In this document: piece after piece, positions 2,981 to 31,561 of the stretch
Layout of the letters: every line of letters starts with the position of its first letter
Position numbering within the stretch: the first letter of the stretch is position 1
Source of the DNA: a virus
IMG/VR virus record: IMGVR_UViG_3300048815_000026
Location: 5,311 to 69,310 of that record
Length of the DNA: 64,000 nt
Direction: 5' to 3' (one strand)
Notes under the pieces: generated by a model
Databases searched by the model: none
Told to the model about the DNA's origin: nothing
The model's input: only the letters and a program-made list of their open reading frames with translations
Made by a program: the position numbers and the translations under genes

Positions 2981-3241
2981 TCAGACCGCCTTGTCTTTGA
3001 CCAAGTGCATCCCTTGGCGCTCGGCCACCAGCTTGTCCAGCCGCATTCGATACCGGCGGATGCCACGGCCGGCGAGGGAATCCAGACTATCCCTCTGCTC
3101 GCACAATAGCGACCAGACCAGGGCTTCCAGCTCGCTATGCCACAGTGGTTCACCCACCCCCAACAGGCGGACGATCAACTCGATCGCGCGCTCCTCGGAC
3201 TGCAGTGTTGGCTCCTCCACTCTCAATGCTTGTCCCTCCAT
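2981..3241 (-). CDS. hypothetical protein
   Basis: 86 aa ORF ending 3 nt before initiator start. Confidence 0.6.
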   Translation of the reverse strand: MEGQALRVEEPTLQSEERAIELIVRLLGVGEPLWHSELEALVWSLLCEQRDSLDSLAGRGIRRYRMRLDKLVAERQGMHLVKDKAV

Positions 3242-3411
3242 GAGTCAGCAAAGGGCAGAATAAATCCTGAAACTGACCTACCCAATTACTAACTTGGTTT
3301 GTGGAAGACCGGCACGGAACCAAAAACGCTGTAACTGGGTCACCAATGGACAACTTAGCGGCACTTACGACCCACGGCTGGGATGAAAAATAATTAATTT
3401 CCCACAGGCCG

Positions 3412-3439
3412 TTTACACGTTGTAGCAGCGTGCTATTAT
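3412..3439 (+). promoter_or_regulatory. sigma70-like early promoter
   Basis: TTTACA-16nt-TATTAT with extended TG and AT-rich UP-like element at 3386-3400. Confidence 0.6.
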
Positions 3440-3466
3440 TGAGCTGTAAGAGAAAGGAAAACGGAA

Positions 3467-3622
3467 ATGGAAAAGATCGAAGCCCTCCAAGCCGCCATCA
3501 TCGAGATCAACGAAGCCCAGAAGCAGGTAGCCAAGTTCCCGGCCATCTGGCAGAAACTGAAGCAGGTCGAAGACTATCTACAGGGCCAACTGAAACAAGC
3601 CGTCGACGCCATCGCCGCCTAA
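3467..3622 (+). CDS. small helical protein (51 aa, below ORF-track cutoff)
   Basis: AAGGA RBS; MEKIEALQAAIIEINEAQKQVAKFPAIWQKLKQVEDYLQGQLKQAVDAIAA. Confidence 0.7.
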   Translation: MEKIEALQAAIIEINEAQKQVAKFPAIWQKLKQVEDYLQGQLKQAVDAIAA

Positions 3623-3680
3623 GTCAACCCCGCCACCAACCTTCAAAAAAGCCACCCACCAAAGTGGCAGGAGAAAACCT

Positions 3681-3881
3681 GTGCCCAAAGCCAAGAAAAA
3701 GCTCTCCCTGAAAAAAGTGATGGCCGCCATCGAAGATGGTGGCTATCCCGGCTTCTGTATCGCCTGCGGCGCCCAGTCCGACGACAACTGCGAACCGGAC
3801 GCCCAGAACTACCCCTGCAGCAGTTGCGGCAAAAACAAAGTGTTCGGCGCCGAAGAAATCCTCTTCATGATGGTGCCCTGA
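3681..3881 (+). CDS. zinc-ribbon protein
   Basis: CIAC...CEPDA..YPCSSC; AGGAG RBS. Confidence 0.75.
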   Translation: MPKAKKKLSLKKVMAAIEDGGYPGFCIACGAQSDDNCEPDAQNYPCSSCGKNKVFGAEEILFMMVP

Positions 3882-5183: not shown

Positions 5184-5654
5184 ATGGACATCAGGCCTTA
5201 CAAGCAGTCGCTCCAGCCCGCCGAATCGGATGCCCCATCCGGTGGTAGTTTCCCGGCACCTGAACCCGAGCCATCGGGCTTTCCGGCTTTGGAGCGCCCT
5301 GCAAACGGGCGGTTAGCTCAGCGGTTAGTCCCCCTGCTCGCCAGCCGCTACATCGGCCATGACCCCAGCTGCCATTGCGACGGCTGCGACGGCATGCGCG
5401 CCTTCCAAATCCTCGAAGACATGCACCGCGCTTTTGGCCTGAAAACCGTGGCCGAGGTGGTCGCCGAGTGCCGCACTATCACCGACGAACAGCGCTCGCT
5501 CGCATGGTCCCCAGAGCCGCCGTACACGTCCCTGGGCGCCGGCGACTGCCGCATAGGCGGAAACTCCAGCCTCGACTTCAACGCCGAAACCCCGCGCGCC
5601 AAGTGGATCCGCGCCCGCTTCCGCATGCGGCGCGAGCAAAGGCGGCCGCAATGA
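5184..5654 (+). CDS. hypothetical protein
   Basis: GAGG RBS; HxxxCxCxxC motif. Confidence 0.55.
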   Translation: MDIRPYKQSLQPAESDAPSGGSFPAPEPEPSGFPALERPANGRLAQRLVPLLASRYIGHDPSCHCDGCDGMRAFQILEDMHRAFGLKTVAEVVAECRTITDEQRSLAWSPEPPYTSLGAGDCRIGGNSSLDFNAETPRAKWIRARFRMRREQRRPQ

Positions 5655-7215: not shown

Positions 7216-7369
7216 TCTCTGCCGCGAGCCGGTGCGCGTACCGGAGCTGAACTGCTAGTGGTGGCCCTGCGCGACGCAAGAGCACCTGTATTGGGTGTGA
7301 AGAAAGTAAGCAGGGACGGTCGGAACGTGCGGTGAGGGGCGCAAGCCACACCAATCCGGCCGGCAGAGA
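7216..7369 (+). ncRNA. candidate multi-stem structured RNA
   Basis: Closing stem TCTCTGCCG/CGGCAGAGA; nested CCCTGC/GCAGGG, GGTCGGA/TCCGGCC and GGC-GCAA-GCC. Confidence 0.55.
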
Positions 7370-7385
7370 AAGTTTGGAGGTAACC

Positions 7386-7595
7386 ATGGCTGACCTAAGT
7401 CAAATCGAACTCGATCACGCAATGGCCAGAGACATATTGAACGACAATGCCGAGGCGTGTGAAAAGCGCGGCAACATCTTCGGATACCGAAAACTCAAGA
7501 GCGCGGCCGGCCAGCTCTCCGGCGAACTATTCCGCACGGCGATGGATTACTGTGCCGACCCAGACCCAGAAGCGGAAGAGGATCTACCTTTCTAA
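7386..7595 (+). CDS. hypothetical protein with acidic DLPF tail
   Basis: GGAGG RBS; SSB-like C-terminal tip EEDLPF. Confidence 0.7.
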   Translation: MADLSQIELDHAMARDILNDNAEACEKRGNIFGYRKLKSAAGQLSGELFRTAMDYCADPDPEAEEDLPF

Positions 7596-8275
7596 TGGCT
7601 GACCTGGCATTCACTTTCGAGCAGGACCGGCACCTCTACCGCAATGCCGCCGGCCTGGTGCGGCCAGGGGTGACCTCATCCCTGACCGCACAAGGGGTCT
7701 TCGATTTCTCCATGGTGCCCCCCGACGTGCTCGAGCGCGCCCGGCTCCGCGGCAAGAACGTCCACCGCTGGTGCGCCGAGTACGACTGGTGCGGCTTCAT
7801 TGACGAGACCTGGATCGCCGTGGACGAAATGGGCTACTTCCAGGCCTGGCTAAACTTCCGGCGCGACATCAAGCCCATCATCCTGGCCGTCGAGCAACCC
7901 ATGCTGGGGCTGATCGGCGGCATCGAGGTGGGAGGAACCCCCGACGTCGTCGCCTGGATCGGCACCACGCGCTATGTCATCGACCGCAAGTGCTGCGCCT
8001 CCAGGCACCCCGGCTGGGCGCTGCAGACCGCGGACTACGAAATGCTTATAACCGGCCGAAAGCGCCTCGGCTACATGGGCCGCATGTCGGTGCAGCTGAT
8101 GCCCACCGGCAAGTACGCCATTACTCTCTACGGGGAAGATGAGAGCGACGCAGCCGCTGCCGCCGCCGCAGTGGTACTCACCGAATGGGATGGCCAAGCC
8201 AACGATTACAACGCCGACCACGCAAGAGAGACGCTGGCGGCATGGAAGCACAATCACCGCCTAAAAGCCGCATAA
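7595..8275 (+). CDS. PD-(D/E)XK exonuclease
   Basis: RGKNVH, E..GGTPD..VIDRK..ALQTADY motifs. Confidence 0.85.
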   Translation: MADLAFTFEQDRHLYRNAAGLVRPGVTSSLTAQGVFDFSMVPPDVLERARLRGKNVHRWCAEYDWCGFIDETWIAVDEMGYFQAWLNFRRDIKPIILAVEQPMLGLIGGIEVGGTPDVVAWIGTTRYVIDRKCCASRHPGWALQTADYEMLITGRKRLGYMGRMSVQLMPTGKYAITLYGEDESDAAAAAAAVVLTEWDGQANDYNADHARETLAAWKHNHRLKAA

Positions 8276-11096: not shown

Positions 11097-11714
11097 ATGA
11101 AGGTGCTGGTAGCCTGCGAAGCATCTGGCGTGGTTCGCGAAGCCTTCCGCCGTCGAGGGCACGACGCCTGGTCCTGCGATATCGAGCCAGCTGAGGATGG
11201 GTCCATTTGGCACATCCGCGACGACGCGCGCTCAGTGCTCACAGTTCGTTCGATTTGCTGGGATCTCATGATCGCGCATCCGCCATGCCGATATCTAAGC
11301 CGCGCCGGCGCGGCCTGGACACACGTTGGCGACCGAATGGTGCAGCGAGAATTGGCCATGCAGTTCTTTATGGAAATCGTCCGGGCGCCGATCGGAAGGA
11401 TATGTGTCGAGAACTCCGAAGGCTATCCGCGGCACGCCTACCGGCCTCCCGATCAGGTGGTCAACCCTTTCGAGTTTGGCCACGATGAACGAAAGAAAAC
11501 GCTGCTGTGGTTGAAGAACCTGCCGCCTTTATTCGCCACCATGATCCACCAGCCAGAAAAACCGCGGTTCACGGATCGCGGCGGCAAGAGACGCTACTTT
11601 GTGGATGCGATGCCCGACAGCAAGAATCGCCGGCAACGCCGCAGCCGCACTTTCCACGGCATCGCTGAAGCCATGGCCGAACAATGGGGGACTCTATGCC
11701 CGACAAACCACTAG
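11097..11714 (+). CDS. phage C5-cytosine methyltransferase-like protein
   Basis: VLVACEASG, AHPPC, VEN, RSRTFHGIAEAMAEQW. Confidence 0.85.
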   Translation: MKVLVACEASGVVREAFRRRGHDAWSCDIEPAEDGSIWHIRDDARSVLTVRSICWDLMIAHPPCRYLSRAGAAWTHVGDRMVQRELAMQFFMEIVRAPIGRICVENSEGYPRHAYRPPDQVVNPFEFGHDERKKTLLWLKNLPPLFATMIHQPEKPRFTDRGGKRRYFVDAMPDSKNRRQRRSRTFHGIAEAMAEQWGTLCPTNH

Positions 11715-13476: not shown

Positions 13477-13983
13477 ATGGAATACGGCGCGCGGTGCCAC
13501 CTCCAGCTCTATCGACTCATTCCCCTCACTCAGGGGAAGTGGGCTACTGTTGACGCCACGGATTACGCGTGGCTGTCGCAATGGAAGTGGCACGCAAGCT
13601 ACAGGCCTGAGAGAGACTGCTATTACGCTATTCGCCGTGGCGCGCACCCGGTTTATATGCACCGAGCCATTCTGGGGCTCGAACACGGTGATCCGCGGTG
13701 GGGAGACCACATCGAACCACCTAAAACCCTAGATAACAGACGGCTCAACCTGCGAGTCGGCAGCGCAGAACAAGGCATTTGGAATAGAAGAAGGTCGCGA
13801 AACAACACCAGCGGATTCAAGGGAGTTTACTGGCGCAAAGACTTAGGCTTGTGGCGCTCCCAAATCTGCGCTGCAGGGGTGCGAATCCACCTCGGATACC
13901 GCACCACTGCAGAGGCGGCATATACAGAACTCTACGTGCCCGCGTGCCTGCGGTACCACGGAGAGTTTGCGAGGATCGCCTGA
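13477..13983 (+). mobile_element. HNH-AP2 homing endonuclease gene
   Basis: IPLTQGK, MHRAI, DH..LDNRRLNLR, SGFKGV..W..I..HLG. Confidence 0.9.
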
Positions 13984-20876: not shown

Positions 20877-21163
20877 CCTACCATCCACGGCTAACCAAAT
20901 GCCCCGTCTGCGGAACAATGAAAAGTCCGCTGGCAACACTCTGCCACGGGTGCTATCGCATAGCGAGAAAAGCCGGTTGCAAAAACACCGGCGATATCCT
21001 GGCATTTGTCCGTTGGTTAGGAAGTTGGGAAAATACACTCGAGAGGAATCCATTCCTCAGTGCCGCCGAGGCCCCATCCCCATCCCCATCCGCCGCCGCC
21101 GGCCCAGCTGAATCGGTGCCTCTTCCTGGTCAATGCGGTCCTCCATCTGCTGCCAGCGAATAG
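20873..21163 (+). CDS. small Zn-finger protein overlapping terL 3' end
   Basis: CPVC..CHGC; GTGA overlap. Confidence 0.5.
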   Translation: MTYHPRLTKCPVCGTMKSPLATLCHGCYRIARKAGCKNTGDILAFVRWLGSWENTLERNPFLSAAEAPSPSPSAAAGPAESVPLPGQCGPPSAASE

Positions 21164-22622
21164 CCGCCGACCCCAGGTCCAGCCCGCGCACCGCATCCTG
21201 CAGCCGCATCTCCCGCGGCTTGGTCGCAAACTGCACAAACGTGTACAGCGCATAGCGCGTCTCGTCCGACACGTCGTCCAGCGGATCCCCGGCCACCTTC
21301 TTGATGTCTCCAGGCTTCACATCGTCGTGCATCCGGGTGCGCAGCGCCTCAAACGTCCGCGGGCACACATCGGTAATCTCAAACTCCCCCGAGCGCAGCA
21401 TCCGGTACAACAGCTGCCAGCCGCCCAGCCGGTCATTCGAAGCCCGCTCAAAGTGGATATCCCACGGCTCGAATATCTCGTTCACCTGGTCCGCAATCGT
21501 GTGCCCGTCGCCAATTTCCTTGAAGTTCGATGGATCCAGAAACCCGGCAATGATCCGCCGCCGCTCCCCACCCTCGGCCGGCTTCACAAAAGCCTCGATC
21601 GCCATCTGCGCCAACTCGTACGCCGGCACATGCGGCACCACCAACTCCCCAATCTTGCGGATCCGTCCTTCTGGAAAATACACCGCGTTGGTGTCCGGCA
21701 GCATTTCCCGGCGCACCCCGGGAATATGTAACTCCGGCGGCGCCGCTTCCCCCGGCCCGCGCACGTACAGCCCCACCGACGACGACGACTTGCCGTACCC
21801 AAAGTCCATCGATAGGAAATGGTTGTGCCACCACTCCACCCCGGCCTCGGCCAGCGGCTTGATCATCCCCCGGTGGAGAAAGGGAAAATACGCGCCCTCG
21901 AGCGTACACCAGCAGCCCTTCTCCATCGCGGCTGCGGCGCCCCCAGACATCATGTGCAGACGCTTGGAGTAATTCGCATCCAGCAAATTGTGGTCGGAAA
22001 GTTTGCCTGGAATGAAGGCCACGGAGAAGGGAATCGCCTCCCCATCGGAAGGCCAGAAGCGGTTCCAGTAGAGCTTGCCCGGCTGGGCGCACTCCTTCGG
22101 CGTATGCACCGGGCAGAACCCATGCAGGAACAGCGTCATGTGCCACGCCGCCCCGATGTTGCCCGGGTTCGACGTCAGCCGCATGCGCAGCCGCAGCGTC
22201 GAATCAGTCGAGCTCAAACGCCCCAGAATGTTGCGTACCTGCTTCTCCGAGTGCAGCGTAGACTCGTCAAAGCCGATGAACGAATAGCGCGGACCCAGGT
22301 ACTTCCACACGTCATCATCCGTCTTCATGTACGCAAACTGGATGGTGGCGCCGGAGGGAAACGTCCAGGTCCACTTCGGCGAGCCCACAAACACCCCGCC
22401 GAAGGGGGAATACAGCCGCTTGGTCTTATCGATGATGTCCGTCATCTCGACGAACGATGACCGGAAAACGATCCCCCGCAGGTTAGGGTTGTCGTACTCC
22501 TGCACCGCGTCCATGAGCATGGTCTCGGTCTTGAGCGACCCCGCGGACCCTCCAAACAGAAGAATATCGGCGCGGGAATCGAGCGCGTCCTTCTGGGCAG
22601 GTGTAGCCGGCTTCCAATCCAT
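21057..22622 (-). CDS. terL: terminase large subunit
   Basis: GGSAGSLKT Walker A, IGFDE Walker B, TSNPG motif III, MDFG...DDVSDETRY nuclease. Confidence 0.95.
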   Translation of the reverse strand: MDWKPATPAQKDALDSRADILLFGGSAGSLKTETMLMDAVQEYDNPNLRGIVFRSSFVEMTDIIDKTKRLYSPFGGVFVGSPKWTWTFPSGATIQFAYMKTDDDVWKYLGPRYSFIGFDESTLHSEKQVRNILGRLSSTDSTLRLRMRLTSNPGNIGAAWHMTLFLHGFCPVHTPKECAQPGKLYWNRFWPSDGEAIPFSVAFIPGKLSDHNLLDANYSKRLHMMSGGAAAAMEKGCWCTLEGAYFPFLHRGMIKPLAEAGVEWWHNHFLSMDFGYGKSSSSVGLYVRGPGEAAPPELHIPGVRREMLPDTNAVYFPEGRIRKIGELVVPHVPAYELAQMAIEAFVKPAEGGERRRIIAGFLDPSNFKEIGDGHTIADQVNEIFEPWDIHFERASNDRLGGWQLLYRMLRSGEFEITDVCPRTFEALRTRMHDDVKPGDIKKVAGDPLDDVSDETRYALYTFVQFATKPREMRLQDAVRGLDLGSAAIRWQQMEDRIDQEEAPIQLGRRRRMGMGMGPRRH

Positions 22623-22630
22623 TCAGCGAT

Positions 22631-23089
22631 TCACTGCACCGGGTCATCCCGCCAGGCCGAGCGGTAGAACGACGGCTTAGCCTTATCCGCCGGCGTCTCC
22701 TTGTACCCATCAATGCCCGGGTCCAGCACCTGCTCCGGCATCCATCCCAGGATCTTCGCCAGCACTTCAATCGCCCGGATCTGGCCCGCCACCGTGGGCT
22801 GGCCCCCATCCGCCTGGATGATCTTTACCAACGCCTCGACCGCGTCCGGCTTATCGAACTTGATCTTCTTGAGCGCGGCCGCGGACTCCTTCTTGAGCGC
22901 AGCATCGATCTCCGCCCGCAGCTTTTCCTGGTACTCCTTGAATTGCGGCTTCGCTATGTGCCGGCACAGCGTTCGCGGATCCATGCCCAGCTTGAGCGCC
23001 ACCGAGCGCCCCGAGGCCTTGCTATCCTCCACCAGCATGCGCGCCGCCACCATCTCCTGTGCGCTTAATGTCACCTTTTTTTTGTTCAC
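22631..23089 (-). CDS. terS: terminase small subunit
   Basis: HTH N-terminus, RAIEVLAKILG, directly upstream of terL; GTG 23089 preferred as start. Confidence 0.75.
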   Translation of the reverse strand: MNKKKVTLSAQEMVAARMLVEDSKASGRSVALKLGMDPRTLCRHIAKPQFKEYQEKLRAEIDAALKKESAAALKKIKFDKPDAVEALVKIIQADGGQPTVAGQIRAIEVLAKILGWMPEQVLDPGIDGYKETPADKAKPSFYRSAWRDDPVQ

Positions 23090-23110
23090 GCCCTGAAAGA
23101 CCTTTCCCTC

Positions 23111-23145
23111 AAATAGAAACGGCAGACCGAAGCCTGCCGTTTCTA
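23111..23145 (-). terminator. hairpin/terminator closing the pentamer array
   Basis: TAGAAACGGCAGGC-TTCG-GTCTGCCGTTTCTA-TTT. Confidence 0.8.
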
Positions 23146-23295
23146 CCATGCCAAACCAAACCAAGCCAAGCCACGCCGAGCCCTAACAGACCGTGCCCAG
23201 CCGAACCATGCCACGTGCCCTGCCAAGCCTTCACCTGGCCGCACCTGACCATAACTCGCCGGACCGTGCCACGGCATACCTCACCGGACCACACC
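23143..23295 (-). repeat. GGY-NN pentamer array (candidate non-contiguous guide RNA)
   Basis: 30 five-nt units, 27 starting GGT/GGC, variable dinucleotides; blocks of 13, 3 and 14 units. Confidence 0.9.
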
Positions 23296-23297
23296 TC

Positions 23298-23345
23298 TTA
23301 AAACTGCTGCACCTCGAAGTGGGTCTGCTGCAGCCGTAGCATCAT
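23298..23345 (-). pseudogene. 15-aa mini-ORF, possible remnant of array effector gene
   Basis: MMLRLQQTHFEVQQF; ATGA-coupled to upstream gene; stop 2 nt before array. Confidence 0.4.
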
Positions 23346-26300
23346 CTCTTCGCGACCGCTTCCTCCTCCAGTTCCTTGAGCTCGCTCTGCTTCACGGTGA
23401 TGTTCCGCCCGTCGTCAGTCTTGATGCGCGCAATCCGCTGCTCCGGATCCTGCCACGCAATCCGGCCTCGGGTGCCGTCCCGCAACCGCACCGCTACCCC
23501 ATTTTTGGAAGATTGAATGGTGCCTGGGCTTACTTCTGCCGGCCGGAGGGTTGCTCCAGCCGCTTCACTTCCCCGCTCAGCCGGTCCAGCTGCTCCTCCG
23601 AGAGTTTTGGATAAAGCCGCCCTGGCTTGCTCATAGGCTGCGGATTTGACTCCGTTTGCGTCTTTGCCGGCTGCAAGGTCGGCCGCGCCCCGGTTGAGGA
23701 TGTCATCGAGCGGTCCCGCTCGCGTACTGAGTCGGTCATAGAGCTCCTGTGCCTGCGCCGCACCCGCGGCGATCTTTGCATTCTCGGTTGTGTTGATTGT
23801 ATTGCCCGCCTGCGCCAGCGGAGCCACTTTATTTTCTTTAGAAACCCCCGCAAACAGGCGCCGCTCCTGCGAGATCCGCCGGCGGATGTACTGCGAAACC
23901 TCCGCCTTCTCCAGCATCAGGTTGCGCTTCATCTCCTGCGTGCCGAAAAGGCTCACCTGCGTGTCTGTGTGCTCGCCGGCGCCACGCGCCATGCGCGCCA
24001 TTTCGTCGACCACGTCGTCGGGAACCCGGCCGCCTTTGGCCTCCCGCGCCTCGATCGTTTTTAGAATCGCTTCCTGCTCGGCTGGGTTCTCGGTCGCCCT
24101 GCCAATCGCCACCGCACGGCTCTCCGGTATCTTGCCGGCGACCACGTCGTCAAAGATAGGACCGCTCAGCTTCGAGAGCGCCATCCCTTCCGACGCCAGC
24201 TTTTCCTTCAACGTAATCCCGCGCTTGGCCAGCGTTTCCGGCGTCGCCTCGGTGTCACGGAAGAATTTCGCCGCATCCACTGCGGTCCCTTTGCCCTGGG
24301 CAATATTCTGCATCGCCCCCACCACGCGCGCTTCGCCGGCGTCCTTCGCGCTCAGGATCGGCTTAGTGTCGATGTCCTCCACCCCGTTAGCTTTGGCCAG
24401 GTCGATGCGATGGTGACCGTTCACTACATACGTCTTTCCGTCCGCCGGATCCTGCCAGGTGGCGATCGCGTCCGCCAGGTCTTCGTTCCACTTCCGACCC
24501 TTGAGCGCATCGGTAACGCCGGCTTTGTCTGTCTTCAGCTTGAACTGGAAACGCTTCGGGTCGACCGCGATGTCAGACACACGCATGCGCTTGACTGTCG
24601 TGGCCGCGCCTGAATCTTTTGGGGGTGCGGAATTTTTAACAGGCGTTGTCGCGGCTGCGGGCGCAGCCGGCTTTTCTAGTACGGTACTTCGAAGTCCGCC
24701 GGCAGGTTGTTCATTCCGTCCACTGTTGCCTGGCCGATCCGATCCGCTACCTGAGCGTGCGTTAACTTCTCCGGTGGCATCTGTGGCTTTGGCTGCGGCA
24801 TAGATGTCGCTGGGGATCGGCTTTTCTCGATTGATCTGCTCGAGTCGCTCATTCATTGCCTCCGTGGTTCGCTCAGGCGTCCACTGCTGCTGAACCTTGC
24901 TGATGAACTCCGGGGTCCTGTCTTGATTATATAGTAGTTTTGCGCTGCCCCGTTCACCAGAGTTATCGATCGTTTGCACCTCCAGCTGGTCCCCAAAGTG
25001 CTGCATTAAGTGCTCTAAAACGTTGGGGATCTCACTATAGGCGTGCGCCATGTAGCTCAGCTGCACGGTGCGCCCGATGCGCCGCGCCCGGTCGATCATG
25101 CGCCCCACCGTCTTTGCCGGATCGTCCACGTAAGACCATAGAATGGTCGGCCGCCGCCCCGAATCGATGATTTGCTGCACCTTCTTCACCGCATCGGCCT
25201 GGTTGTCGAGAATGCTCTCCATGTCCAGGCCCACATGCCCCTCTCCCGGCGTGGTCAACCCCGTCGTCTTACCCGACCCTGGAGAGGCCGTCATAATACG
25301 CACGTCGGCTTTGCCCGGAGCCGGCGGCTTCTTCAACACCGTACGCAGCGAAGCATCCGCCACCTGGCTGGCCGCTGAGGCGACCAAGCGATCCTGGTTG
25401 GTCCGATCCTTCACATACTCAGGAAACTGCTCCTTGGCCGCGTCCGTGGCAATGTTAGGCACCCCATTCTTGGTGTTGGCCTTCAGGTAGTCCGCCACCA
25501 TCTGCGGGCCGTTCTCCTGCACACGCTGCTGGAACGCAGCCTCTTGGGCGGTTCCCGTATTGGAACGTTTGGCCTTGATCGGTGCAACATCCTCGGCCGT
25601 GTATCCCGGTGCAACCTCCACCCGCGCAGGCGCAGCTGGACTAGTTTCCGCGGGCTGAGCCGCTTCTGTCGCCGGCCTGCGCACTGGCTGCACGACCGGC
25701 CTCGGGCCGACTGGTTCCACAGCTGTGCCCGGATTCAGTTGCGGATAAGGCGCCCGCACTGCTGCGGGTCCAGGCCTCACTGGCACCAGAGGCGCATTAG
25801 CCCCTGCCCCGACAGCCCCCGCATTCCCCGTGGTGCCTACCTGCGTCCGCGCCGTCCTCGGCGTCACCGGCTGCACGTACTGCCCTGACAACCGCGTCGG
25901 CGAGGGCTCCGGCAAATTCGAAAAGAAATGCTGCAGCCCCTCTTGGATCGGCGTCATCGGCGTCGAGCCAAGGACTTTGTTGGCCACCAGTTTGGCTGCG
26001 CCCTTCATGAAGCCGCCGTCGACGCCCTTCAGCGCCTGCGCCGCCGTCTCCCGTGCGCTTAGCGGCTGTTCCGCGATCGCCTGCTGCTTGGCCATCCGCG
26101 GCGCCGCGTTCTGCAAGGCCTCCTGCGCCTTCAGCACGCTCGATTCCTGCCGCTTCAGCCACTGGAAATTCTGCCCCGTCGCCTGCTCCAGCTTCTGGTA
26201 GTACAAATCCCTGGTCGCTCCCAGCGCGTCCTCGAGGCCTTTAGTCACCGCGCCGGCGCGCCCAGCCGCCACAGTGTTCTTGGGAAACTGGTTGGCCAGC

Positions 26301-27451
26301 TCGCGGTTCAGCCACTGCCGCAAGTCGTTCAATCCCCCCAGCGTCTTCACTGTCCCCAGGCGCCGTTGCAGTTCCTTGATCTCCGCCGCATCCTCCGGCG
26401 CAAACTCCTCCAACGTCTCTGGGAACTTCACCGCGCTCTGCAACGGCGTGGGATCGACCGGCAAATCCTTCACCGGAGCCAACGTCTGCGCATGCGCCAC
26501 GTCGGTCTGCTCCTGCATCTTCTCGAGCACTGCCTGTGTCCGCGCTACCGCATCTTCCGGCGTCGCTGCCGTCGCCGGATTCAGTTCGGGATTGTCTGCC
26601 ACCACCTGGCGCAGACCACTCCCAATGTCCGTGGCAATTTCCTTGGGAAAGAAGCTGGTATCCCGAATAGTCCCGCGCGCCAAAACGCCCGCTAAAGACG
26701 CGTGCTGCGTAGCCGTATAGTTCTGCCCTACGATCTTCGGCTGCGGCTTAGCCCATGCCACCGCCGGCTCGACCACCTTGCCCAGCAGATAGCCGCCCAG
26801 CATTTGCCCGGCAGTGTTGGCCGGGTTGGCGGCCATCGCTACACCCTGCTCGCCGGCCTCCTGGCGCACGTCAGCGACCGCCTCAGCGTTCTGCGCGTCG
26901 ATCGTGGGGTTTCCCGTCACTGCCATCGCAGGGACGCCCAAGGCCGACCCTGAAGCCCCTCCAGCCATCAGTCCCTTGCCGGCTGCCTGCAGCGCCTCCC
27001 ACGGGTGCAGGACGGGGTTAACCAAGCCCTGCGCCGTACCTTGCCCAAACCGCTCCACCTGCCCACGCCAACCCGTGTCCGGAGTCGTGCCCGGCGCGGC
27101 CAGCTCCTCCGTGATCCGGTCGCGCCAGTTCTGCGGCGGAGTGGCCGCGGCAGGCTGCGAAGGGAGTCCGTCGGGGGCCTGGGCCGGCAGCACCGGAGCC
27201 GGCTGCAATCCGCCCGAGCCAAAATCAATCTGCCCCGACCGGTTCATCCCCGTACCCGGCACCGGAGGCGGATGCAGTTGGTCTCCGCCATACGCCGCGA
27301 ACGGGTTGACCGCCCCTGCCGCCGCCGGCGCAGGCAGGTCTGAAGTGCCCGTCACCGCCGTGTTATCGGGAGTCAGTACCCCGCCGCCATAACCCGCGAG
27401 TGGATCTTGATCCTGGGTCGTCTGGTCTGTCTGGTCTACCGTGGTGGTCAT
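23342..27451 (-). CDS. large ejection/polyvalent protein with zeta-toxin-like P-loop and ParB-like domains
   Basis: MTASPGSGKTT..MESIL; IAVDPKRFQFK..YVVNGHHR; located after other ejection genes. Confidence 0.75.
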   Translation of the reverse strand: MTTTVDQTDQTTQDQDPLAGYGGGVLTPDNTAVTGTSDLPAPAAAGAVNPFAAYGGDQLHPPPVPGTGMNRSGQIDFGSGGLQPAPVLPAQAPDGLPSQPAAATPPQNWRDRITEELAAPGTTPDTGWRGQVERFGQGTAQGLVNPVLHPWEALQAAGKGLMAGGASGSALGVPAMAVTGNPTIDAQNAEAVADVRQEAGEQGVAMAANPANTAGQMLGGYLLGKVVEPAVAWAKPQPKIVGQNYTATQHASLAGVLARGTIRDTSFFPKEIATDIGSGLRQVVADNPELNPATAATPEDAVARTQAVLEKMQEQTDVAHAQTLAPVKDLPVDPTPLQSAVKFPETLEEFAPEDAAEIKELQRRLGTVKTLGGLNDLRQWLNRELANQFPKNTVAAGRAGAVTKGLEDALGATRDLYYQKLEQATGQNFQWLKRQESSVLKAQEALQNAAPRMAKQQAIAEQPLSARETAAQALKGVDGGFMKGAAKLVANKVLGSTPMTPIQEGLQHFFSNLPEPSPTRLSGQYVQPVTPRTARTQVGTTGNAGAVGAGANAPLVPVRPGPAAVRAPYPQLNPGTAVEPVGPRPVVQPVRRPATEAAQPAETSPAAPARVEVAPGYTAEDVAPIKAKRSNTGTAQEAAFQQRVQENGPQMVADYLKANTKNGVPNIATDAAKEQFPEYVKDRTNQDRLVASAASQVADASLRTVLKKPPAPGKADVRIMTASPGSGKTTGLTTPGEGHVGLDMESILDNQADAVKKVQQIIDSGRRPTILWSYVDDPAKTVGRMIDRARRIGRTVQLSYMAHAYSEIPNVLEHLMQHFGDQLEVQTIDNSGERGSAKLLYNQDRTPEFISKVQQQWTPERTTEAMNERLEQINREKPIPSDIYAAAKATDATGEVNARSGSGSDRPGNSGRNEQPAGGLRSTVLEKPAAPAAATTPVKNSAPPKDSGAATTVKRMRVSDIAVDPKRFQFKLKTDKAGVTDALKGRKWNEDLADAIATWQDPADGKTYVVNGHHRIDLAKANGVEDIDTKPILSAKDAGEARVVGAMQNIAQGKGTAVDAAKFFRDTEATPETLAKRGITLKEKLASEGMALSKLSGPIFDDVVAGKIPESRAVAIGRATENPAEQEAILKTIEAREAKGGRVPDDVVDEMARMARGAGEHTDTQVSLFGTQEMKRNLMLEKAEVSQYIRRRISQERRLFAGVSKENKVAPLAQAGNTINTTENAKIAAGAAQAQELYDRLSTRAGPLDDILNRGAADLAAGKDANGVKSAAYEQARAALSKTLGGAAGPAERGSEAAGATLRPAEVSPGTIQSSKNGVAVRLRDGTRGRIAWQDPEQRIARIKTDDGRNITVKQSELKELEEEAVAKR

Positions 27452-27452
27452 C

Positions 27453-29288
27453 CTAGAAAACCTTCGCCCCCGGGTTGTCCTTCAAAAACCGTTCCTTCTG
27501 CTTTGGGTCGATGTGCCCATACCGCCCATCCTTCAGCTGCACCCCAACCTGCCCCGCCGGAATCTTGATGTTCTCCGGCCACCCATTCGGCTGATGTCTG
27601 CCGCCGCCTGTGGTATGCACCTGGTGCCCACCCTGCACCCCGGGAATGCCCTCCGCCAGCCGCCGCGTGGTCGCGTGAATCTGGTTGGTCTGCCGCAGAA
27701 AGTAATCCAGGTCCGGCGTCGAAGCATTCGGCAGCATATCCAACAGCCGGTTGACCTGAGATTCGGTCGCCCCCGGCAGCCCGCCCGCCTTGCGCATCGC
27801 CTGCAAATTCTCCCGCGCCGAAACCAGGCCGATTACATAGTTCCTCTGCTCCGGCGAAAGATTCGATTTCGCCAACTGCCCCTGAACCCACTGCGTTGCC
27901 GTCCCCTCCGGCTGCGCCAGCGCCGCGGCCACCAGCGTGTTGTCGATCCGCTGACCCTTGGCGGACATAGCCCTGGCCGCCTGCTCCAGAGTGTCGAGCG
28001 ATCCGCTCACATCGTTGAACTGCGCCACCTGCGCCTGGTTCTTTGAGGCCTGCGATTGGAACGCCGTGCCCACCCCCGTCGTGTTCCCCTGGTCATCGGT
28101 CAACTCCGTCCGCCCAGGCAAACCATGGCCCTGCAGATCCGTGCCCTTGGCCGCCAGCAAATAGCGCCCATAGTAGGCCTGCGCCCGCTCGCCCTCGACC
28201 GCAATCTGCTGCTGCCGCTGGTTCCATGCCGGCGTCCCCGGAGTGATCTTCTCCTGCTCGATCTCGGTCTTCCATTTGGCGATCTTGGCCATCGAATCGC
28301 GGTACTGGTTCAGCGCCACCCGTGACTGCGTGACCACCGAATCGGGATCCTCGACAATCGATTTCTCTCCCGTGGCCGGGTCCGTAACCACCTTCATCCC
28401 CTTGGAAGGGGCCTCGTCAATATCCTTCTGCTGGATGCCCTGAATCCGCAGATGCCCCGTCGTCGCCGCCCTGGTGATGCCGCCCAGGTCCGCCGGCCGG
28501 TACGTCGCGCCCACGATCAAATCGGGATTCTGCGCATGCATCTCCGGGGTGACAATCTCCGGCTCCATACCCTGCGCCTTGGCCGCATCCAGCGCGGTCT
28601 TCTGCTGCGTCTCCGCCAGGTTCGCCGAGGCCGCCTGCTGCGCCTGCTCGTTGCCGATCAGTTGTTGCTCCCGGCCCACCAACAGTTGATGGTGCCCCTC
28701 GGTCCCACCCACCAACGGCTCAATCCCCGGGAGTATCGCGGCCAGCGTGTCGTCGCCAATCCGCGCCAGCACCCGCTTTACCGGGCTCTTGATCTGCGAA
28801 ATCCCGCTCCCTGTCGAGGTCAGCCGCGCCAGCTCTGCCTGCTCCCGGTCCAACGTGGACGGCCCCTGCACTGGCTGCACTCCGCCCTGAGGAATCGCCG
28901 GCATCACCGGCGTTGTCCCACCCGGCCGCGCAAAACCGCCCGGATCCGGATTCGCCGGATCGGCCGCCGGAGCCAGCTGCGAAGCCGCGTACGCCGCTGG
29001 GCCACCTGATGCGTTGTAGTCAGCCGTCCTTTGCTGAAACGCCCCCGCCAGGCCAGCCCGCTTCGGCTCTGCCTGCGATGGCGGCGTCTTGATAGATCCG
29101 CTCTGCGGCGTCGTCTGCCCGGCCGAGGTCTGCGGCGCCGTGTTGGGCGGCGGCATCACCAAAGCCTGCGCCGGCGCAGGGCTGGCAAACCCGGCAATCT
29201 GCCGGTCTACATCATCGGCGTCGTCGTCCTGGCCCGGCCAATACGACGGGTTCGTCAGCATCTGCGTTCCGCCCATTAGTTCGTCCAC
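27453..29288 (-). CDS. putative DNA ejection / internal virion protein
   Basis: Q/A/G-rich helical 611 aa protein in podovirus ejection slot. Confidence 0.65.
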   Translation of the reverse strand: MDELMGGTQMLTNPSYWPGQDDDADDVDRQIAGFASPAPAQALVMPPPNTAPQTSAGQTTPQSGSIKTPPSQAEPKRAGLAGAFQQRTADYNASGGPAAYAASQLAPAADPANPDPGGFARPGGTTPVMPAIPQGGVQPVQGPSTLDREQAELARLTSTGSGISQIKSPVKRVLARIGDDTLAAILPGIEPLVGGTEGHHQLLVGREQQLIGNEQAQQAASANLAETQQKTALDAAKAQGMEPEIVTPEMHAQNPDLIVGATYRPADLGGITRAATTGHLRIQGIQQKDIDEAPSKGMKVVTDPATGEKSIVEDPDSVVTQSRVALNQYRDSMAKIAKWKTEIEQEKITPGTPAWNQRQQQIAVEGERAQAYYGRYLLAAKGTDLQGHGLPGRTELTDDQGNTTGVGTAFQSQASKNQAQVAQFNDVSGSLDTLEQAARAMSAKGQRIDNTLVAAALAQPEGTATQWVQGQLAKSNLSPEQRNYVIGLVSARENLQAMRKAGGLPGATESQVNRLLDMLPNASTPDLDYFLRQTNQIHATTRRLAEGIPGVQGGHQVHTTGGGRHQPNGWPENIKIPAGQVGVQLKDGRYGHIDPKQKERFLKDNPGAKVF

Positions 29289-30136: not shown

Positions 30137-30628
30137 ATGAGACTGATACCTCTAACTCGCGGTAAGTTTGCTAAGGTCGATGACTCTGATTACGAAGAGA
30201 TGTCCAAGTACTCATGGCAAGCAGAGCTTAAGGGGAACATGACTTATGCTGGACGCGCCCTGCCTCGGGTAAAAGGGGAACCTCGTCGCCGCATCTACAT
30301 GCATGTGCAAATCCTCGGAACTCCCAAGGGAAAGCGCTCGGACCATCACGACGGAGACGGACTGAACAATCAGCGCTACAATCTTCGGCCAGCCACTGCA
30401 TCGCAAAATGCTGCCAACTCTGAAGGCCATAAAGACCGGACCTCCCCGTTAAAGGGCGTTATCTGGGACAAGAACCGAAACGCCTGGGCCGCTCGCATCG
30501 GATTTAACAAGAGAACCATAAACCTCGGCAGGTATCGCACCAAGGAGGAGGCGGCTACCGCGTACGGGGCAGCCGCCGCGAGGTACTTTGGCGAATTTGC
30601 AAAATTGCCTAACGTAAGTCCCTCGTGA
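30137..30628 (+). mobile_element. HNH-AP2 homing endonuclease gene (antisense to late operon)
   Basis: IPLTRGK..MH..DHHDGDGLNNQRYNLR..KGV..W..LG. Confidence 0.9.
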
Positions 30629-31013
30629 AGTGAGCAAGGTCTTGATCCACACACTCAAAGCCGGCCCGCCGCAGCGGCTTGCCAATCATCTTCACCAGTT
30701 TTCTCGGGACGAACACCTCCAGCCAGCGAAGCCCCTTGCTCCTGAGCCTTTCGGCCAACCGTTCCACTTCCCGCTGCGCGGCGGCGGTGAACCTTGGATC
30801 GATCGCGACAAAGCGCAATTCCGCAACCGCCTCGCAGTAGTAGAGCCCCACGATTTGCCCGTCCGATTCGCCCACCACCGCGTCAATGATGCAGCTGCCA
30901 TCAAATGGCGGACCCTCGAAGTTTGTTCCCTGGATTCTGGATTGTTCCACGTGCAACGCATTGATAGCCGCCACATCGGCGCGCGTGGCCTCGCGGAAGC
31001 TAATCTTCGTCAT
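30609..31013 (-). CDS. GNAT-fold virion-associated protein
   Basis: FREATRADVAAINAL..DGQIVG..RRAGF. Confidence 0.6.
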   Translation of the reverse strand: MTKISFREATRADVAAINALHVEQSRIQGTNFEGPPFDGSCIIDAVVGESDGQIVGLYYCEAVAELRFVAIDPRFTAAAQREVERLAERLRSKGLRWLEVFVPRKLVKMIGKPLRRAGFECVDQDLAHFTRDLR

Positions 31014-31218
31014 GGTCGTACAATTCGCGGCGCAAATGCTCGGCCGCCGCCACCCGGACAAACTCGATCATCCCCAACGTGTCCGCGGCGATCTGCCCGC
31101 AGGAGTCATAGCTGATCTCTCCGTCTATGGTCCGGGTGACAATGAGCACCTGGACCACGTCGTCCATCCCCTCCATCTTCGAAATCAGGAAATCGCTGGG
31201 GCTCAGATCGTCGTTCAT
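31000..31218 (-). CDS. hypothetical protein
   Basis: Coupled small ORF MNDDLSPSDF... Confidence 0.55.
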   Translation of the reverse strand: MNDDLSPSDFLISKMEGMDDVVQVLIVTRTIDGEISYDSCGQIAADTLGMIEFVRVAAAEHLRRELYDHDED

Positions 31219-31478
31219 TTCACCGTCAACCCGTGCTTGCCGGCGTAGGCCAGCATGTTTTCCTGCGAAGTGTTCAGCGCCCCATTGTGCTTGGCGATCG
31301 CCGCCGCTGGATCCAGTTCGCCCAGGTTCGTCTTCAGATGAACTGCTCCACATGCCGGGCAGGCATCGTGCCCCACCCCAAGCTGCAACACGTGCTGATG
31401 CCCCCGCTCATCGCGCAGTTCGATCACATGAAATCCGCTCGCCAGGTCGAGATATTGCTGGTGCAGGTGAAAAGGCAT
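31215..31478 (-). CDS. hypothetical protein
   Basis: GAGGAG RBS; CPAC. Confidence 0.65.
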   Translation of the reverse strand: MPFHLHQQYLDLASGFHVIELRDERGHQHVLQLGVGHDACPACGAVHLKTNLGELDPAAAIAKHNGALNTSQENMLAYAGKHGLTVK

Positions 31479-31561
31479 GCGCTATTCTCTCCTCAGTCCT
31501 TGGGCTGGGGGGACGGATGGGGAGCCCACCACGATAGTTGTGGACACGCCGGTCCCGTTTA

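Follow-up and report, generated by a model that had tools for sequence, protein, structure and literature searches.

A VIPR-type guide array in a complete phage genome without a recognisable Vipr matches a gene of its own carrier

Why should a phage carry an RNA guide for the silencing of DNA when the only match known for this guide lies in a gene of the phage itself and no protein that could use the guide is recognised in its genome? The question is raised by a stretch of DNA of 64,000 nucleotides (nt), here called the window, which comprises positions 5,311 to 69,310 of the IMG/VR virus record IMGVR_UViG_3300048815_000026 and to which all coordinates refer unless stated otherwise. On the minus strand of the window a tract at 23143-23295 is built from tandem five-base units of the form GGY-NN (Y: pyrimidine; NN: two variable bases), and its assignment as a guide of the VIPR type can be regarded as settled from its sequence. 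The variable dinucleotides of its first block were found to match, codon by codon, an open reading frame (ORF) of 611 amino acids (aa) of the same phage, with the third base of each codon skipped. This match is real and not a product of chance.

Arrays of GGY/NN units were described as the guide RNAs (vrRNAs) of VIPR systems (10.64898/2026.04.26.720920, 10.64898/2026.04.26.720927). A vrRNA consists of 9-16 GGY/NN repeats and a 3' tail; this small RNA, about 100 nt long, binds the protein Vipr and silences matching DNA (10.64898/2026.04.26.720920). Vipr was shown to be a small RAMP protein that polymerises along the RNA with one protomer per repeat and hides the GGY bases; the NN dinucleotides pair with double-stranded DNA and one target base per unit, mostly the wobble base of a codon, is skipped, so that every third target base is flipped out in an R-loop triplex that blocks transcription and that forms from the 3' end of the guide to its 5' end (10.64898/2026.04.26.720920, 10.64898/2026.04.26.720927). 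VIPR requires no protospacer adjacent motif (PAM), either strand can be targeted, intragenic targets are silenced, and the natural targets are rival phages and satellites (10.64898/2026.04.26.720920, 10.64898/2026.10.15.759431). The gapped code and its mechanism are not new, having been published in 2026, and the non-contiguous guide that a preceding sequence-only reading of this DNA had proposed, which reads the first two bases of each codon and passes over the wobble base, agrees with the published rule of a one-nucleotide skip. What departs from print is the self match, at an identity of 0.92, in the carrier genome.

Block 1 of the array (23231-23295, minus strand) contains 13 units that are read from 23295 to 23231, and its dinucleotide string was borne out exactly as the sequence-only reading had given it. 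A scan of both strands of the window at a period of three placed it at 28528-28565 on the minus strand, where 24 of 26 read positions are identical and 11 consecutive units are perfect. Both mismatches fall into the outermost units (GT against GA, and GA against AA) and concern one read base each, in agreement with the earlier count of 11 perfect dinucleotides and one of two bases at either end. The site spans 13 codons, about codons 242-254, encoding EPEIVTPEMHAQN, of the 611-aa ORF (27453-29288, minus strand). Read as its reverse complement, 28527-28565 shares the frame of this ORF, EPEIVTPEMHAQN is present in the translation, and all skipped bases are third codon positions, which had likewise been claimed beforehand. 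The guide has the sense of the coding strand of the 611-aa gene; its only possible partner would therefore be the template strand of the DNA, the mRNA being excluded. The matched site is located 5.2 kb upstream of the array in the same transcriptional direction.

The next-best site for block 1 in the window scores 17/26, and among the 138,292 positions of the whole 69-kb genome one scores 24, one 17 and thirteen 16. In the shuffle test that the sequence-only reading had called for, 300 permutations of the block 1 units reached at most 20/26 with a run of 7, and 300 strings composed from codon positions 1 and 2 of the 611-aa gene reached at most 21/26, again with a run of 7; skip periods of 2, 4 and 6 gave at most 17/26. 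Based on the codon-position composition of the genome itself, a Poisson-binomial calculation predicts 1.6e-7 in-frame sites with a score of at least 24; the rough figure of the sequence-only reading had been about 1e-8. Chance is ruled out because 24/26 stands against 17 for the next-best site, because the 600 shuffled or random guides reach no more than 21 and because only 1.6e-7 such sites are expected. The identity of 0.92 also exceeds the cut-off of 0.80 that the preprints use for natural targets.

The architecture of the tract is that of two abutting guides. In block 1 the triplets are GGY in 11 of 13 units, the two exceptions being GCC and GTT. It is followed by a junction (23213-23230, minus strand) that is composed of an extra A, three register-shifted GGC-NN units with the dinucleotides TT, AG and AC, and a final GT, and then by block 2 (23143-23212, minus strand) with 14 units, 13 of which carry GGY. 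Both blocks together have GGY in 24 of 27 triplets and diverse NN dinucleotides. Directly after the last unit, fold prediction places a 13-bp hairpin with a UUCG loop (23115-23144, minus strand) that is followed by CUAUUU and that may constitute the 3' tail and/or the terminator of the guide transcript. The terminator rule of the scan tool did not call this hairpin, and the promoter and terminator scan of 22900-23700 called nothing at all; a match of the hairpin to an Rfam model of a Brucella small RNA (28 bits versus a gathering score of 218) was rejected as spurious. A whole-genome scan found only one array region, that at 23143-23295.

A scan of IMG/VR for eight consecutive GGYNN units yielded at least 120 contigs or loci, and 368 blocks from these other loci have a median of 12 units (interquartile range 10-14) with 7.9% non-GGY triplets. 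Block lengths of 13 and 14 are typical in this comparison and lie within the published range of 9-16 repeats. Between the blocks of the other loci, conserved structured spacers or shifts in register are often seen. In 74 of 120 loci, among the matches listed, a protein of about 211 aa that belongs to one family is encoded within 1.2 kb of the array, on the same strand as the array in 71 of the 74. All six members tested against PHROGs match phrog_4652 ("unknown function") and the four members tested against Pfam gave no match. Other readings of the tract, namely a site for a TRAP-type ring-shaped RNA-binding protein, a G-quadruplex tract and a pac site for the neighbouring small terminase, were dropped in view of the wide occurrence of GGYNN arrays beside one protein family and of the VIPR preprints. 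A 61-aa ORF across the array (23109-23294) has no family match and was dropped as superseded by the identification as GGYNN/VIPR.

On the array strand, the stop of a gene encoding a 1369-aa protein at 23342 is followed by a mini-ORF (23345-23298), block 1, the junction, block 2, the hairpin and the terminase genes. The 1369-aa gene (23342-27451, minus strand) belongs to the virion module and lies between the target site and the array; residues 932-1284 of its product match phrog_21, and a weak Zeta_toxin match is below the cut-off. Directly downstream of array and hairpin follow a small terminase-like helix-turn-helix gene (terS; 22631-23089, minus strand) and the large terminase gene (21057-22622, minus strand).

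For block 2 the best site in the genome is at 23052-23092 on the plus strand, 50 nt from the guide in the first codons of terS, where it scores 19/28 in frame and in the orientation opposite to that of the block 1 match. This falls short of the 80% NN identity used in the preprints and is not significant, this score being equalled or exceeded by 62 of 300 permutations. In viral contigs the 10-unit core of block 2 has no match. A single match among metagenome contigs (L124, 12700-12728, in frame in a 110-aa ORF) was treated as chance: its four flanking units are at chance level, the overall score is 22/28, and about one random match is expected from a rough estimate of the collection size.

The absence of the effector, which the sequence-only reading had also noticed, was borne out in a complete genome. 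The record of 69 kb has a direct terminal repeat of 127 nt at 1-127 and 69184-69310 of the full record (G000), which makes it a circularly closed assembly, and CheckV gives a completeness of 100. The first 5310 bases of the record, which precede the window, contain neither an array nor a Vipr. Eight hidden Markov models (HMMs) built from clusters of array-adjacent proteins detected no Vipr in the six-frame translation of the genome (best E value of the main family 2.9), phrog_4652 gave no match at E<=10 in the same translation, and no probability above 1.8% was obtained when the main Vipr profile was compared with 42 ORFs by hhalign. Of four patterns for the C-terminal glycine-loop motif of Vipr, three are unmatched in the genome, and two single matches to the loosest partial patterns lack a glycine-rich context. 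PHROG annotation of 20 further ORFs and an inspection of the unannotated ones revealed no RAMP candidate. The genome is complete, it contains a guide and no vipr was detected, as in the published solo vrRNAs, the vap families not having been searched individually; by its sequence the locus would be classified as a solo guide locus rather than a full VIPR locus.

The mini-ORF in front of the array (23298-23345, minus strand) comprises 15 codons and its product ends in ...HFEVQQF; it overlaps the 1369-aa gene at the stop of the latter and leaves 2 nt to the start of the array. At 22 of 64 loci no more than 10 nt separate the vipr stop from the array that follows it, and the C-termini of Viprs commonly read ...G-R/K-F-x-V..., with F.V in the last 16 residues of 48 out of 74. 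Only 3 of 74 Viprs carry the strict form of the motif, and the shortness of the peptide precludes a test. The mini-ORF gives a hint only that the 3' end of a vipr gene may have survived a deletion of most of that gene. Tracing such a deletion takes a comparison with VIPR-positive relatives, and no close relative of the phage was found.

The target gene has no family assignment. The 611-aa ORF matches nothing in Pfam or PHROG, and its designation as an ejection gene, as it was first called, survives only as a weak lead: the nearest named cluster by language-model features is Inj_translocase (0.91, 144 shared features), a kind of assignment that the tool itself flags as often due to chance. Homologues are found in phage contigs and in contigs of metagenome-assembled genomes (MAGs) of Acidobacteriota. 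A large protein collection contains 13 of them, and the ten that were aligned are 29-45% identical. The matched peptide lies in a partly conserved stretch, and VTPEMHAQNP is identical in one homologue. Eight related loci were examined, three on viral contigs and five on contigs that the record titles assign to MAGs of Acidobacteriota or Acidobacteriaceae; neither an array nor a Vipr was found in any of them, and in the syntenic relative L121 the genes abut at the array junction without a gap. For these two reasons the array is regarded as a lineage-specific acquisition. Closer relatives are missing from the collections: the exact array has no match in viral contigs, searches of viral contigs with terS or with the 611-aa protein alone gave no relatives, and INPHARED gave none by blastn and tblastn. 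The likely host phylum is Acidobacteriota and the likely habitat is peat.

What does the self match mean? We tentatively favour the reading that 23143-23295 is a solo VIPR guide pair that needs Vipr in trans and is a weapon against the 611-aa gene in close kin, and stop short of calling this reading probable. As no Vipr is encoded, the guide would act only with Vipr supplied in trans, by a co-infecting or a resident VIPR-positive element. Vipr protomers would coat the guide, one per GGY-NN unit, and expose the NN dinucleotides, block 1 would pair with the template strand over 13 codons of the 611-aa gene, and the R-loop would block transcription. The target would be the 611-aa gene as carried by the phage's own close lineage, in the sense of a competition among kin. 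Wobble-skipping would give the guide immunity to synonymous escape, and the phage's own copy would be spared by the one mismatched read base in each outermost unit.

Several observations weigh against this reading. The only match of block 1 is the self match, and 11 contiguous perfect units amount to a full guide's worth of pairing, so that the phage's own gene may be unprotected. The 11-unit core of block 1 has no match in viral, genome or metagenome contigs and the best score in the eight related loci is 18/26, so that the full matches that had been expected in related phages did not materialise; this absence of a non-self target in three contig collections has little power, as no close relative of the phage is present in the collections searched. 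The Asn codon under the 3' mismatch of the guide is common to the three homologues that keep the motif, which speaks against the target having escaped by mutation. Block 1 lacks a structured tail, none being present between the two blocks, and for this reason its competence as a guide is putative. The RNA-library contigs described below touch only the edges of the array, so that its expression is presumed. That the genome lacks a recognisable Vipr is a conclusion from searches by sequence, for which the Vipr families are reported to be too diverse, and not all of the 69 ORFs were folded. In the available text of the preprints, searches for self matches found none at or above 0.80 (10.64898/2026.04.26.720920, 10.64898/2026.10.15.759431), and for the solo guides in print the self score is below the non-self score (10.64898/2026.10.15.759431).

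An alternative is a relic of self-targeting, in which vipr and guide entered a genome that the guide recognised, or a guide against the own lineage arose; once a late gene of the phage itself was silenced, selection would have favoured the loss of vipr, and the guides would now be inert. Taken by itself this account is rather unlikely, and it is almost as likely as a solo guide directed against kin. It accommodates the complete genome without vipr, the 11 contiguous perfect units against the own gene and the lineage-specific array, which neither the eight related loci nor the gapless junction of L121 share. It would also explain the position of the 15-codon mini-ORF 2 nt before the array, where vipr usually stops, and the conserved Asn suggests that the 3' mismatch arose in the guide and not in an escaped target. 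A deletion of vipr-vap1 that leaves solo guides behind was documented in SUSP1-like phages (10.64898/2026.10.15.759431). Against these points, the vestige motif in the mini-ORF is weak, given its rarity in the strict form and the shortness of the peptide, and the guide scaffold is no more decayed than that of arrays beside an intact vipr (3 non-GGY triplets of 27 versus 7.9%). In addition, neither a donor nor a sister genome that shows the deletion was found.

Compared with these two readings, an autoregulation of the phage's own late operon is quite improbable. Here a Vipr supplied in trans, or a divergent one that escaped detection, would throttle the operon by a roadblock at codons 242-254 that keeps the polymerase from reaching the 1369-aa gene, the array and the terminase genes, thereby constituting a negative feedback. 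The co-orientation of target, array and terminase genes with the array 5.2 kb downstream of the site is as this would require, no terminator-like site was called in 22900-23700, and the silencing of intragenic targets on either strand is published for VIPR (10.64898/2026.04.26.720920, 10.64898/2026.10.15.759431). However, no Vipr is encoded, and a foreign protein as rare as Vipr, with one occurrence among 301 genomes sampled from the probable host phylum (the phylum of one relative MAG), would be a poor basis for the regulation of essential packaging genes. Autoregulation also has no precedent in the available published text, whose self-searches are without self matches (10.64898/2026.04.26.720920). 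The single Vipr match among the 301 genomes is at the locus L130 (G267:C7:156295-159522), where blocks of 8-10 units, separated by GGAACnn, lie on the minus strand at about 760-1015, directly upstream of the vipr start.

A use of the solo guides as anti-VIPR decoy, which would sponge a rival's Vipr away from its intended targets and for which the identity of the site would matter little, is highly improbable. It has a published counterpart in the solo vrRNAs of satellites, which act as decoys by parking Vipr on host REP elements (10.64898/2026.10.15.759431), and block 2 is without an identifiable target. The published decoy sites, as far as the text describes them, are however multi-copy host repeats and not a single site in an essential operon of the element itself, and a guide that served as nothing but a sponge would not be expected to match a single-copy gene of its own genome in frame at 24/26. 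A chance resemblance of a simple repeat to coding sequence, for which speaks only that one block of two is matched, has practically no likelihood left given the scores above and the confinement of the match to the published skip period and the codon frame.

Compared with VIPR as described for type II with Escherichia phage SUSP1 as reference, the locus shares the tandem GGY/NN units in numbers of 9-16 per guide, the single skip per unit and its alignment to the wobble base, the location on a phage and the target within coding sequence. It differs in that no vipr was detected in a complete genome (vap was not searched individually), block 1 is tail-less and only a plain hairpin, for which no pseudoknot is shown, follows block 2, the likely host phylum is Acidobacteriota with peat as habitat, and the sole match is in the phage's own genome, where the preprint in its available text reports no self match of 80% or more.

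The nearest published counterparts of the locus are solo vrRNAs, which were reported for F5 satellites and for 346 vipr-null enterobacterial phages as "guns for hire" that exploit the Vipr of rivals (10.64898/2026.10.15.759431). Here as there, guides are kept without vipr on a mobile element, Vipr is presumed to come in trans and the targets are aligned to the wobble base (10.64898/2026.10.15.759431). The published solo guides, in the text available, are aimed at vipr genes, other vrRNAs, satellites and host REP repeats, whereas the guide described here matches a structural-module gene of its own genome at 0.92 and has no non-self match in the three collections, so that its self score is not the lower one. 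Moreover, no deletion scar is provable here, the phage lineage is unrelated and both junction and tail differ.

Self-targeting spacers beside degraded cas loci are known from CRISPR autoimmunity. They resemble the present case in that the guide matches the carrier genome and the effector is absent, and they differ in the system and in the pairing code. No acquisition machinery is known for VIPR.

Whether the locus represents a natural case of VIPR self-recognition, be it that the guide is a weapon against kin whose antidote is a resistant, minimally altered allele in the same genome or that a carrier-targeting guide drove the loss of vipr, we consider doubtful. If true, it would be the first documented autoimmunity or self-avoidance rule of VIPR, and the mismatches in the end units would mark the limit of tolerance. 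The locus presents a clean and statistically unambiguous guide whose only known match is in the carrier genome, which the preprints did not find. The text of the VIPR preprints, as available, contains no data on mismatch tolerance. The own allele with 24/26 and an ideal allele with 26/26 form a pair of substrates for the number and place of mismatches tolerated by VIPR and for the avoidance of self-silencing. The locus also adds a complete phage, probably from peat and with relatives in MAGs of Acidobacteriota, to the enterobacterial phages in which solo VIPR guides were described.

With respect to its natural occurrence, a 6.2-kb stretch is present whole, with all its sampled words, in an independent assembly of one peat sequencing run, possibly the run from which this DNA came. 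Further runs, namely two RNA libraries and DNA runs from peat and permafrost, contain short contigs of identical sequence. Those from the RNA libraries extend over 23050-23161 and 23265-23471, show no differences and possibly originate from DNA. Among the four runs compared, neither the target site nor the middle of the array is covered by a good piece. Over 26073-26279 the 1369-aa gene has a counterpart with about 91% identity (18 differences in 207) in a contig of a permafrost RNA library, and therefore diverged relatives of the phage exist in nature, even though the contig collections contain none.

An all-against-all seed comparison of 369 blocks on 121 sequences revealed no general excess at period 3 over permuted guides (22 versus 20 at k=8), and the 8 of 344 blocks that reach at least 0.8 within their own partial loci, a count without chance control, are all only 8-10 units long. 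At the locus L038 (1119-1157) a palindromic GC-rich tract carries the GGYNN pattern on both strands and gives spuriously high self-match scores.

The tail-less, abutting blocks have parallels in the staggered arrays that are mentioned in the legend of fig. S18 of one preprint (10.64898/2026.04.26.720920) and in the loci L010, L012, L019 and L130, all of which show register shifts and no long conserved tails. In these four loci the blocks meet with a 1-nt overlap after GGCAG or are set apart by a GGAACnn separator, whereas the shifts in the present array are +1 (A) and +2 (GT) around a mini-block of three units. In L010 (880-1400), L019 (1880-2300) and L012 (minus strand, 7360-8000) the tail-less blocks are joined by a recurrent GGCAG and a four-base unit with a 1-nt overlap, and these arrays seem to represent the staggered architecture of that legend. 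A different organisation is seen in L003 (minus strand, 3040-3720), where a conserved structured spacer of about 54 nt comes after each of five blocks with 11-15 units. Shortly downstream of the last of these blocks begins a gene that starts like a RuvC-type resolvase, as judged by eye from its first residues.

Elsewhere in the window, a DNA methyltransferase gene (phrog_757, 1.2e-52) is located at 11097-11714 on the plus strand among plus-strand early genes. The minus-strand late region is interrupted at 30137-31537 by a small plus-strand island that encodes an HNH endonuclease (phrog_99, 2.6e-31) and two doubtful ORFs, and a second HNH endonuclease is encoded at 13477-13983.

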